Assembly (NCBI GenBank): GCA_017654855.1
Contig: CM030335.1
Span: 2,666,001 to 2,730,000 of the forward strand
DNA length: 64,000 bases
Direction of reading: 5' to 3'
From: Podospora anserina
Taxonomy: Eukaryota
Below, one piece after another: positions 18,659-22,417 of this stretch. The stretch's first letter is position 1; every line of letters begins with the position of its first letter. The notes beneath the pieces were generated by a model. The model did no database searches. It was not told the origin of the DNA and worked only from the letters and a program-made list of their open reading frames with translations. The translations under genes and the position numbers were made by a program.

Positions 18659-20330
18659 AGGGTGTACTTGTTGTCACTGAAGAGGTGTGTGTGTGCGTGT
18701 GCGTCTTGCTGCACGGTGACGTCTTGTTTCAAAGTGGAAAAAAGTGGTGGTTGTTTCTCAGCTCTCTTTTTTCCTCTGCAAAGAACAGAAAGAGAAGAGT
18801 TTTTGGGAATCTGAAAATGAGCATGGTTGGGGCGAATTCGCGCAGTTTTTAATCAGCAGGGTCATGATGGTTTTTGCTGCGTACAATTGAGTATCTCTCT
18901 TGAATCCGCTGGAGTTTTGTTTGTTGCGGCGCCCCTCCACCCAGAGGCCCAGTAAAACTACAGGGCGGGTTTCTTACCCCGAAAAAAGGTTGAGGCCGGC
19001 TCTTTGCAAGCGGTTCGGGCGATCGGGGTGGAACATGATTGGTCATGAACGGTGAGCTGGAACTGGGGCCGCTGGAGCCGAGGCAGTGGTTTCGCCGAGT
19101 GCTTTTCCATCAGACATCTTTCAACACTTCCATGCATCCATCAGCTGAAGTGGCAGCCTTGTTATTGATTGTGTTATCTACTCTCAGCCTTGGGGCCATT
19201 GTGGTTGCTTTGGTGTCAGATGTACTTTTGATATTGAGTCTTTTAATAAGACTATGTTGTGAGCGGAGTTCAAAGATTTCTTACCCCTCCAACATTTTGG
19301 ACTTGCAACAGCAAAGCCAGAAAACCGGAGCCAAGCCGTCGATTTGCATGCCCGATTCCGGGTCAGCTCTGAGGATCAAATGTTACCGGCCAGGCACGCG
19401 TGACTCCTCCGCCTTTGCCATTGCCGTTCGCCCTCAGCTACCGCCCATTGGGCTATGGTGTCGTATGCCCATCTACAAAAGGTGAGGAGATGGCTGTTCC
19501 CTACCCCGCTTCGCTGTACTTGTCTGTTTAACTCCGCGGGGACTACCCGGCAGGCCCGGGTTGCTTTAAAGTGGTCTCCTTGACAAGATATCGGTATACA
19601 AGAGATCAAAGCCTGGATATTCTGTATGTTGGAGACTTGACTGTCAGTCCGGATTAAGGGGCCCGTTGAAAGAAGACAAAGGCGTGCCTGAGACCTGACC
19701 GCCATCGGGCCAACATCAACTCTCCCAAATGCTTGGGCCCTCCAATCGCATGGCGTCATCTGTCTCCACCGATCACTGACACATCATCGAACACTCATGA
19801 ATGTCCATTCATACATCCAAATGGAATCCAGGAACAAGAGAGATCGGCAATATCGGGCAGTTGGGTTGTTGATTACAAAATTGGCGTGATGGCCTAAAAG
19901 CCAACCATTGCGGGATACTCTTGGTTTTGGCTTCTCCTGTACTTGGGTGGCCTCATCGAATCTCTCTCTCTCTCGGAGCAACTGGCAATTGTCCGAGCGG
20001 CTGGAAGAGGCCCAGAGCGGGCGGGCAACGCATCCACCTTGAGGCTGCTGCAGGCGGGTGACTTCCACTGTCTGACGTCGTGACCTTTGAAAGGGACTAC
20101 CACCTCATGAAGCAATCATTTCCCTTCCCCTTTTGCCCCCTTTCCAATAAAATCGCAAGCCCTTCAACGCCTCTCTCTGTAACTGCATAAAACGGCACCT
20201 AATAAAGGCAGAAACAAGAAGCCGCCATTCAGGTACAACACATCAAACAACCACAGATAAAAGACCCCCCATTCCCCGCATCCCGCATTAACACTACGTG
20301 CCACACCCACCGCTGCTAGTACACCATAAG

Positions 20331-20372
20331 ACCACCACCACCACCACCACCACCACCACCACCACCACCACC
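20331..20372. repeat. (ACC)14 microsatellite upstream of UBC8
   Basis: Perfect trinucleotide run. Confidence 0.95.
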
Positions 20373-20746
20373 CAGCTGAGTCAACCGATCCGATCGTCGA
20401 CACCTAATAGCAGCAGCCCTCGCTCGCCTCTTTCGCAAGTGCGCCCCTGCCAACTCCAAAAAGAAAACCATCAAGGTAGGCCAGCGAAAAAAAAAACACC
20501 TGTGGGATTGATCTCCTCCTTTTACGCCATACCTATCCTGCTGTGGCTCTGCTTGCTACTTACTACATCCTCTCTTCCTTTCCTAACACCGATCCCTCAA
20601 ACCTCGAACGCCCTGCCAGTTGCCACCCGCTAACTCAAACTCCTCGATTTTGACAAGACCGACGCCGAAAACTCCACGCGGGCGTGTCCCTTTGAAAGCC
20701 ACACCATCCCAAACGACTGGTAACGTAGCGATCCAAGTCGGCAAAG

Positions 20747-21786
20747 ATGGCTTCCCCGCGTCGCCGCATCGAGACAGATGTCATGAAGCTGTACGTCTAC
20801 CTGCGAGGGAGGGTGATAAAAAACCAAGACTGATGGGAAATGGGTCGATAGGTTCATGAGCGATTACGAGGTCACCTTGGTCAATGATAATAGTACGTAT
20901 ACATACATATACCCGACAGCGTGGGGCAAGGGGCTTGATGCGGTGGGATGCTAACAGGTTATGCTTAATTTGCAGTGTAAGTCAAGCTCGACGCCACGAC
21001 GATGGCTACAGCGGCCCGATACTCCACACGGTGCGATGGTTTGCAAGATGGGAACCTTCATGACTGATGCGAGTGGTGGGAACGATAGGCAGGAGTTTTA
21101 CGTGCGGTTCAAGGGGCCTACTGAGAGTATGTGATATCTGCTCGATAAAAGAGGTGGGATAGCTAACCCGGTGCAGCTCCCTTCGAAGGTGGTGTCTGGA
21201 AGGTTCATGTCGAGCTCCCTGATCAGTACCCGTATAAGTCGCCGAGTATTGGGTTCGTGAACAGGATTTTTCACCCTAATATTGATGAGCTGTAAGTTTG
21301 ACCACACGGAAGCATATAGGCAAGATTGGAATGAGAGGCTAACGACTGGGGGATTATAGGTCTGGATCGGTCTGCCTCGACGTCATCAACCAAACCTGGT
21401 CGCCCATGTTCGACATGATCAATATTTTCGAAGTCTTCCTCCCGCAGCTGCTGCGCTACCCGAACCCGACGGATCCGCTGAATGGGGAGGCGGCGGCGCT
21501 GTTGATGAGGGAGCCGAAAAGTTATGATATCAAGGTCAAGGGTGAGTAGCCTTCTGCTCTCTTTTTACGGTCACTCGCTTTTACCGGAATCCTCGGGTCG
21601 TAAATGGACAAGTACAAAATTGCTGACGATATCCCAATGACAGAGTACGTCCAGAAATACGCCAGCAAAGAAGCAGCCGACGATGCCGGCGCCGAAAGCG
21701 AAGACGACGACGATCTGTCCTCGGTGGCGAGTTTCGACGACGACGATGAGGAACAGCAGCCAGCTGGTAAGATGGATGATGTATAG
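20747..21786 (+). CDS. UBC8: Ubiquitin-conjugating enzyme E2, Ubc8/UBE2H; 7 exons including a 1-nt exon at 20976
   Basis: Spliced translation [108 protein letters not shown] plus an acidic tail. Exons 20747-20790, 20852-20892, 20976, 21089-21126, 21177-21291, 21360-21541, 21644-21786. Largely missed by the ORF track. Confidence 0.93.
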
Positions 21787-22417
21787 GGTTGGATTTGTCG
21801 TTTGTTTCCGAGGGGTACTCCAGCGGTGTGTTGAATGCTTTTTCGTCTTGACCAAATCATGGATGGACTACAGGTATGGGTGGATAAGGGAGTTGCAATG
21901 GCTTGGTACGGTACTAAGGGTTTTCTAACGGTTCTGGTTCCTGGTTTTGATATCCATTATTTTTCTTTTCTTGGAGGTTGATGCACACTCGGAGGCTGTG
22001 AATGTGTTGTTTGGTTTGCTTGGCTCCGGACTCCCGGCAACAAAGGGTTTGAGGTTGGCTTGTGTGAGAAACAGTCAGACTGTGAACCTGACTGCACACA
22101 GTTTAGGCGACTTCACTATATATGTTCAGGAGCAAGGTTATAGAGCAACTTTTACAACGACTGCTAGTGTTGTAGAGTAAGGCAGCAGCTACAGATCTGG
22201 AGCAAGCTGCAGCCAGCCAATCAGCGCCGATAAGACAGAGTACGACTTGACTAATAGTATCCCAAGTTGTAGTTGTAGTTGCAGTTGTAGTCAAAGCCAC
22301 TAGGTACCGACAAATGGGGAAAGCGAAAAACAATCAATCTTTTCATGAGTATGGGGTATAATCGCTATGCTTTGCAAATAAAACAAAATGCAAACCTTTT
22401 CCGCGTCCCTCCGGGAG

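Follow-up and report, generated by a model that had tools for sequence, protein, structure and literature searches.

One-nucleotide exons, single bases kept in the processed transcript between two spliceosomal introns, have been published for plants and fungi. Such an exon was described in APC11 of Arabidopsis (Guo and Liu 2015, PMC4674806), and later in APC11 and VPS55 across land plants (Yu et al. 2022, PMC8831610). In fungi, single-base exons were reported for host transcripts of small nucleolar RNAs (snoRNAs) in Candida (Donovan et al. 2016, PMC5033589), and a long-read annotation of Coprinopsis cinerea contained thirteen 1-nucleotide (nt) exons (PMC12230235). The most recent case is the Fusarium gene CYP621A (Nelson and Syed 2026, PMC12940212). 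The present analysis concerned the UBC8 gene of Podospora anserina, which lies in a 64,000-nt stretch of the genome (assembly GCA_017654855.1, contig CM030335.1, positions 2,666,001 to 2,730,000 of the forward strand), hereafter the window, in which all positions are numbered from 1. The codon for Met29 of the encoded ubiquitin-conjugating enzyme (E2), a protein of the UBC8/E2-H type, is very probably split over three exons as A/T/G, with the T at position 20976 forming a one-nucleotide exon that is retained in the messenger RNA (mRNA).

This arrangement had been proposed in an earlier note made from the letters of the window alone. The same note held one-base exons to be rarely documented, a description that should be updated in view of the published cases in plant APC11 and VPS55, Candida, the 13 Coprinopsis genes and Fusarium CYP621A. 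The UBC8 exon is a further case of a published phenomenon, and is distinguished by its breadth, by its housekeeping gene and by its frequent misannotation. No paper that tied UBC8 to a micro-exon or a one-base exon was found in a literature search that did not extend to journals behind subscriptions or to some 1.7 million articles of PubMed Central.

Organization of the UBC8 junction and its transcripts

The region 20400–21800 of the window was read base by base to locate the exon and intron signals. Exon 2 ended with the A at 20892 (...AAT GAT AAT A) and was followed by intron A of 83 nt, with GTACGT at 20893–20898, GCTAAC at 20950–20955, and CAG at 20973–20975. The T at 20976 was the sole base between introns A and B. 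Intron B of 112 nt carried GTAAGT at 20977–20982, ACTGAT at 21063–21068, and TAG at 21086–21088, and exon 4 began at 21089 with G CAG GAG TTT. The branch A was located 21 nt upstream of the 3′ end in both introns. The positions previously proposed for the end of exon 2, for both introns, for the T and for the start of exon 4 were all borne out by this reading. In the window, as in 43 distinct relatives, the T stood between two complete introns, the upstream one with AG as its last bases and the downstream one with GT as its first.

The reading frame and the conserved residue depend on the T, through which the phase-1 end of exon 2 is joined to exon 4. With the T included, the coding sequence (CDS) was 564 nt long and encoded 187 residues with no internal stop. 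The model without the T, in which 20892 is joined directly to 21089, was out of frame, as had been predicted, and had its first stop at residue 69; joining 20892 to 21093 was likewise out of frame by simple arithmetic, since a phase-1 end meets a phase-0 start. An A, C, G, or T at 20976 would give Lys, Thr, Arg, or Met, respectively, and protein alignments showed that the Met at the junction was conserved from plants to fungi. The gap 20893–21088 contained only two sites of the form AG-N-GT, the T at 20976 and a C located 28 bases into the gap (~20919). The C site was without conservation and would require an intron of 27 nt; therefore, exclusion favours the T.

Eighteen sequencing runs carried 0.41 of the sampled words and six carried all of them; none of these runs was recorded as RNA. 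Contigs of three runs of the 0.41 class, from three studies (X1, X5, and X7), and of one run with all words (X19) were aligned to positions 20500–22000. Over this range, the X19 contig was colinear with the window with zero differences. X1, X5, and X7 each gave one contig in which all exons were joined. The joints 20790>20852, 21126>21177, 21291>21360, and 21540>21643 were clean GT..AG joints, the last one with the cut shifted by +1. These contigs contained neither intron sequence nor the intron of the 5′ untranslated region (UTR), and continued through the 3′ UTR. Because of this splice-joint structure, we infer that spliced RNA was the source of the three contigs.

At the site itself, the aligner gave the same output for X1, X5, and X7, namely a skip of 195 bases with the ends AT..CG, three letters that fitted both sides, and one other letter in the piece 21085–21126. 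The three ambiguous letters were ATA, which is present at both 20890–20892 and 21085–21087, and the fourth letter matched neither the G at 20893 nor the G at 21088. In the X5 record, positions 260–297 and 298–339 were contiguous, and these 80 letters covered 20852–21126. They corresponded to 41 + 1 + 38 letters, while a direct join of exon 2 to exon 4 would give 79. Of the 196 bases that separate 20892 from 21089, all three spliced contigs lacked 195 and kept one letter other than G. The contiguous record of 80 letters and the unmatched fourth letter therefore showed that the mRNA retains exactly one letter and that this letter is not G. Mature mRNA thus keeps a single base at the site, which by exclusion, and by comparison with the transcript of a relative, is probably T.

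In that relative, a transcript and its gene could be set side by side. A contig of 1199 nt (L017) contained the entire CDS in one open reading frame (ORF) and matched two genomic loci (L035 and L036) in five to six blocks of exon size, with 98.5–98.8% identity. There were no differences within 30 bases of the junction on either side. L017 read ATG where both genomic loci read A, an intron of 62 nt, T, an intron of 57 nt, and G; the processed form in this relative contains the T. Another locus, L001, was considered as a source of the retained letter and was ruled out, with a nucleotide identity of 87% in exon 6 and a different organism of origin.

The features of the gene were as follows, all on the plus strand.

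20476..20657, plus strand: intron of the 5′ UTR, 182 nt, GT..AG, inferred from X1, X5, and X7 contigs that match 20442–20471 upstream of 20654; the exact cut is ambiguous (CAAG at both sides), and 20476–20657 is the canonical GT..AG placement
20747..20790, plus strand: coding exon 1, start codon ATG at 20747–20749; joint 20790>20852 of GT..AG type in all three RNA-type runs
20791..20851, plus strand: intron 1, 61 nt; contigs skip 61 bases, GT..AG
20852..20892, plus strand: exon 2, 41 nt, phase-1 end with the A of the Met codon; from sequence, contigs and frame
20893..20975, plus strand: intron A, 83 nt; absent from the X1, X5, and X7 contigs
20976, plus strand: proposed one-nucleotide exon, a T at the second position of Met codon 29; from contigs, frame, orthologues and the mRNA of a relative
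20977..21088, plus strand: intron B, 112 nt; absent from the X1, X5, and X7 contigs
21089..21126, plus strand: exon 4, 38 nt, first base the G of the Met codon; from sequence, contigs and frame
21127..21176, plus strand: intron, 50 nt; contigs skip 50 bases, GT..AG
21177..21291, plus strand: exon 5, 115 nt, with the HPN motif of the UBC fold; UQ_con, E 4.9e-13
21292..21359, plus strand: intron, 68 nt; contigs skip 68 bases, GT..AG
21360..21541, plus strand: exon 6, 182 nt, with the catalytic-Cys stretch SVCLDVIN; UQ_con, E 1.9e-13
21542..21643, plus strand: intron, 102 nt; contigs skip 102 bases, GT..AG with the cut at +1
21644..21786, plus strand: last coding exon, acidic tail, stop codon TAG at 21784–21786; the transcript extends to at least 22000

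The Pfam domain UQ_con, the catalytic core of UBC enzymes, was found on both exons tested, exons 5 and 6, and the window translations contained HPNIDE and SVCLDVIN. A full-length relative of transcript type (P0011) was 90% identical to the model. Among solved structures, P0011 matched best with 8pmq_E, named E2-24 kDa (E 7.6e-71), which we take to be yeast Ubc8, and also matched 8pjn and 2z5d, named E2 H; other E2 families followed at about 1e-26. The source names of homologous proteins included E2 H and UBC8. The translation of exon 7 (ORF 21604..21786) was rich in Asp and Glu and would form an acidic C-terminal extension. An acidic C-terminal tail is typical of the UBC8/UBE2H subfamily. The name UBC8 given in the earlier note was supported by the domain, the structure matches and the source names, and on these matches the assignment of the gene to the UBC8/UBE2H subfamily of E2 enzymes holds.

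Upstream of the gene, at about 20330–20375, the window contained a long trinucleotide repeat, which would encode runs of about 13–14 Thr, His, or Pro in the three plus frames; the opposite strand would read as repeated Gly, Val, or Trp.

Conservation of the site and public protein models

Metagenome contigs were scanned with exon 6 and gave 387 confirmed relatives, and the comparative counts refer to the best 80 of these 387. The site was covered by 75 of the 80 loci, and five ended before it. ATG was uninterrupted in 23 of the 75 loci and interrupted in 52. In 51 of the 52 interrupted loci, the arrangement was A/GT...AG/T/GT...AG/G with both introns at least 46 nt long and the letter T every time. 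After removal of duplicates, 44 distinct gaps remained. The core, defined as AG-T-GT flanked on each side by an intron of 40 nt or more, was present in 43 of them, compared with a mean of 1.2 and a maximum of 6 when the gaps were shuffled 500 times with their ends fixed. The AG-T-GT layout is more than chance. A core with a letter other than T, and with both introns of at least 40 nt, was found in none of the first 41 distinct gaps. These 41 gaps fell into 36 mutually unalignable groups; therefore, the introns turned over completely while the core persisted, and the layout outlasted the sequences around it.

The central proposal of the earlier note, a Met assembled from A/T/G over three exons, agreed with these loci, with the one non-G letter kept in the contigs, with the reading frame, and with the transcript and gene pair of the relative.

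The intron signals were tabulated for 44 sequences, the window and 43 relatives. G at +1 and T at +2 were present in 44 of 44 sequences for intron A as well as intron B, and G at +5 in 44 and 43, respectively. A pyrimidine occupied position −3 in 43 of the A introns and 39 of the B introns. The motif CTRAY, located 8–45 nt before the 3′ end, was present in 41 A introns and 26 B introns, compared with a mean of about 7 in shuffled sequences for either intron (maximum 17 for A and 15 for B). The shortest of the 88 introns measured was 46 nt. By these signals, A and B are two complete, independent introns. Within a locus, no similarity of A to B above shuffled sequences was found (44 pairs, mean z 0.25, with one pair standing out). 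The present sequences carry no sign of an origin of the two introns by tandem duplication, although age would erase such a sign.

The 23 uninterrupted loci were of three kinds. Twelve were short and transcript-like, with a single ORF that spanned the entire CDS, two had the whole CDS on long contigs, and the remaining nine had no intron at the site and kept other introns. The uninterrupted genomic loci were L001, L005, L013, L022, L042, L051, L056, L067, and L078, and also L034 and L079. The nine loci with other introns suggest a joint loss of introns A and B, probably on more than one occasion. The only interrupted locus without a one-base exon among the best 80 of the 387 relatives was L038 (2163–2212), on a contig of 10.9 kilobases, where a single intron of 47 nt, A/GT...AG/TG, was located at the position of intron A. 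L038 may represent either a loss of intron B or an older state. With 11 genomic loci that had no intron at the site and one with a single intron, the layout appears to have been lost mostly as a unit, which is consistent with intron loss via reverse-transcribed mRNA. Four loci, L061 (2110–2241), L066, L068, and L069 (716–845), contained the one-base exon and had Ser in place of Gln after the Met (G TCG GAG); these four were nearest to Geopyxis (Pezizomycetes).

The loci were placed by ranking the C-terminal parts of 121 named proteins, a rough measure for a domain that is very conserved. Loci with the one-base exon were nearest to Helotiales (L030 at 0.98 and L031 at 0.96), to Hypocreales (L012 at 0.91 and L065 at 0.93), to Geopyxis (L061, L066, and L068 at 0.90), and to Morchella (L028 at 0.86), and others were more loosely nearest to lichen-forming and dothideomycete genera (0.83–0.88).

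The layout is, judging from these comparisons, old and under selection. The T is invariant because ATG is the sole Met codon, and the adjoining AG and GT are invariant because both are splice sites. An origin near the base of Pezizomycotina is likely. Whether the one-base exon would be ancestral to Pezizomycotina, kept for hundreds of millions of years with both introns repeatedly lost together, is evenly balanced. Retention under such an ancestry would include Sordariomycetes, Leotiomycetes, and Pezizomycetes, and probably also Lecanoromycetes and Dothideomycetes. Pezizomycotina is the largest fungal subphylum. If the ancestry were true, no one-base exon known in fungi would be older or more widespread than that of UBC8, most public UBC8 models of the subphylum would be wrong at the N-terminus, and the site would offer a natural system to measure how the spliceosome handles, and in which order, an acceptor and a donor one base apart.

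The junction was also inspected in 220 fetched proteins, which were sorted by source, with labels copied by hand, and by the state of the flanks at the junction.

Transcript-type sources (only Logan, JGI, ENA or similar), 89 proteins: clean single M, 16; both flanks with an irregular link, 0; 2–3 residues between the flanks, 0; left flank only, 0; right flank only, 6; neither flank, 67
Genome-annotation sources, 131 proteins: clean single M, 6; both flanks with an irregular link, 43; 2–3 residues between the flanks, 5; left flank only, 31; right flank only, 33; neither flank, 13

Transcript-type proteins that carried both invariant flanks had a single M in 16 of 16 cases and never an R. The statement of the earlier note that gene predictors usually miss such exons agreed with the genome annotations, where only 6 of 131 proteins were clean at the junction and one of these six was from a plant. 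The faulty genome-derived models read through an intron, dropped residues, or lost the N-terminus. Their irregular links mostly opened with Ser or Thr, and Ser is expected from read-through of the A/GT donor. Irregular junctions were found in named models of Sordariomycetes, Leotiomycetes, Lecanoromycetes, and Morchella, in line with the breadth suggested by the placement of the loci. Most of the genome-annotated UBC8 proteins sampled were therefore wrong at this site, despite the conserved housekeeping enzyme that they represent. Such models could be repaired by a simple rule, in which a phase-1 exon end and a phase-2 exon start that are one base short are searched for an internal AG-N-GT.

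When the C-terminal tail specific to this species was used as the query, no protein of P. anserina from a transcript source was found. The identical tail was present in only two matches, P0009 and P0022, both of which were genome annotations with a faulty junction. P0009 (Podospora pseudocomata, Sordariales, 166 residues) was 100% identical to residues 47–187 of the model; its match started at window position 21067, within intron B, and exons 1–3 were absent. P0022 (Cercophora samala) was 97.9% identical and two residues short at the junction. An in-frame shortcut from a GTCAAT donor at 20880 to the acceptor before GAG at 21093 was also considered. It would remove six conserved residues and was used by no contig; the Morchella model P0024 resembled it.

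Order of intron removal and alternative readings

The two flanking introns, of 83 and 112 nt, are ordinary U2-type GT-AG introns, each with its own donor, branch site, and acceptor, and splicing would proceed by intron definition with stepwise removal of the introns. The AG at the end of intron A occupies positions −3 and −2 of the intron B donor, inside the stretch contacted by U1, and the putative branch site of intron A is located only 22 nt from the intron B donor. With this overlap and this spacing, two spliceosomes would therefore hardly fit simultaneously. Judging by the footprints of U1 and U2, and by how short an exon can be when both of its ends are recognized at once, there should be no room for two complexes. 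The authors of the Arabidopsis study likewise hold, without a test, that two complexes do not fit together (PMC4674806).

Either removal leaves the signals of the other intron intact, and therefore the sequence enforces no order. We slightly favour the removal of the upstream intron A first in most molecules. After the removal of A, the bases before the intron B donor would change from AGT to TAT, and TAT would pair slightly better with U1 at −2 and −3, which is a weak argument. A fixed order with the downstream intron B first, around the same one-base exon, is possible but unlikely. It has a precedent in the 9-nt exon of potato invertase, as related by the Arabidopsis authors (PMC4674806), and with B gone the acceptor of A would be unchanged and free of bound U1. 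However, neither removal makes or destroys a signal of the other intron, and intron A is transcribed first. The single-base-exon transcripts of Candida were described as spliced classically or by two alternative routes (PMC5033589). In UBC8, a well-expressed gene of transformable fungi, one base separates an acceptor from a donor, which makes a question dating from 2015 directly testable, namely which intron goes first and whether two spliceosomes exclude each other.

Several points weigh against the one-base exon with stepwise splicing as set out here. The identity of the retained letter in the organism's own mRNA rests on exclusion and on relatives, and X1, X5, and X7 were labelled as RNA by a guess, their RNA nature being deduced from clean splice joints. 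Contigs mask rare isoforms and intermediates, and carry no information about which intron is removed first or about any skipping of the T. All 80 loci were metagenome contigs, with several duplicates, and locus counts are not species counts. L058 (2123–2245) carried two possible AG-T-GT cores 9 nt apart, with introns of 65 + 55 or 74 + 46 nt, either of which would give an identical mRNA; L058 could thus be a naturally occurring example of alternative one-base exons. The steric case for stepwise splicing was drawn from general knowledge of spliceosome footprints.

The contigs could also be explained by one non-canonical intron of 195 nt with the ends AT..CG, together with a change of the G at 21088 to T by RNA editing or strain polymorphism, and with no one-base exon at all. 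This explanation follows the literal output of the aligner, with its one other letter, and several public models read Arg (AGG) just before QEF, the residue expected from such an intron when the genome is translated. Nevertheless, it is very improbable. Ends of the type AT..CG are outside every known class of spliceosomal intron, and the change would have to recur in three of three runs, yet the DNA-like run with the same organism label showed no difference. The canonical AG/T/GT was present in 51 of 52 interrupted relatives, whose introns are unrelated, and the 16 transcript-type proteins with both flanks had M, never R.

A similarly small probability was given to the possibility that the spliced contigs are DNA of a processed, intron-free gene copy. 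The label of RNA is a guess and no run was recorded as RNA, which leaves room for such a copy. Against it, the share of sampled words was 0.41 in X1, X5, and X7, which had no intron sequence, and 1.00 in the runs with all words; the contigs also lacked the 5′-UTR intron and extended through the 3′ UTR. In addition, a processed copy would come from the same spliced mRNA, so that inclusion of the T would still be proven.

The least credible alternative was retention of the C at ~20919 (28 bases into the gap), so that Thr would replace Met; it is the second AG-N-GT site in the gap and the contigs exclude only G, but its upstream intron of 27 nt would be below the shortest of the 88 measured (46 nt), no core with a letter other than T and both introns of at least 40 nt was found in the first 41 distinct gaps, and ATG was read in 23 of 23 orthologous transcripts and intron-free genes.

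Comparison with known one-base exons and related systems

In stwintrons, or spliceosomal twin introns (Flipphi, Fekete and co-workers), the donor, branch, or acceptor element of an external intron is split by an internal intron, whose removal creates the functional external intron. The stwintron resembles the UBC8 site as a complex intervening sequence of Pezizomycotina, and is removed by two consecutive standard splicing reactions. In a stwintron, however, the order is forced and nothing is left in the mRNA. At the UBC8 site, introns A and B each keep an uninterrupted GTNNGT donor, branch motif, and YAG acceptor, one base remains in the mRNA, and no new signal must form. The likeness to stwintrons drawn in the earlier note is an analogy only, as the splice signals of A are not split by B, nor those of B by A.

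The zero-nucleotide recursive splice sites found in Drosophila and vertebrates have YAG next to GTRAGT and use the two consecutively. They divide very long introns into parts, with no base left in the product and with a donor that is formed anew from the upstream exon. The UBC8 site has an acceptor and a donor back to back in the same manner. It differs in that its introns are only 83 and 112 nt long, its donor is pre-existing, and a T is located between AG and GT and remains, in agreement with the one letter kept in the contigs.

The snoRNA host transcripts of Candida share with UBC8 the presence of fungal spliceosomal introns one base apart, and RNA-seq showed their splicing, partly by nested or recursive routes (PMC5033589). 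Unlike UBC8, they are non-coding, with no dependence on a frame, and one of their clusters has neighbouring introns with splice-site letters in common, which introns A and B do not have. The 1-nt exons of Coprinopsis are likewise fungal and transcript-derived, and their omission breaks gene models; the species is a basidiomycete, unlike Podospora. Three supplementary spreadsheets of that report contained no mention of UBC8, ubiquitin-conjugating, or microexon (PMC12230235).

APC11 and VPS55 of plants are similar to UBC8 in several respects (PMC4674806, PMC8831610). Their one-base exons, which are described as constitutive in the plants, are deeply conserved and missing from reference annotations, and some lineages lost both introns at once, so that the base is located inside one large exon, as in UBC8. 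Stepwise removal was proposed and not demonstrated, as here. The kingdom and the genes are different, and APC11 was point-mutated in protoplasts. Alternative use of the one-base exon was described for VPS55 (PMC8831610), whereas the UBC8 contigs, which would not reveal rare variants, gave no alternative form.

Fusarium CYP621A shares the most detailed features with UBC8 (PMC12940212). In both cases, a fungal coding gene has a single base between two GT-AG introns, with support from RNA reads; the base is the middle of a codon in a conserved motif and joins a phase-1 end to a phase-2 start, and nearly all public gene models miss it. The claim made for CYP621A of being the first for a fungal gene overlooks the reports from Candida and Coprinopsis. 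The base of CYP621A is G (AG-G-GT), in a rarely expressed P450 known from one genus with 20 orthologues. In UBC8, by contrast, the base is T and the gene encodes a housekeeping E2, with 43 distinct gap sequences whose nearest named relatives belong to several classes of Pezizomycotina.

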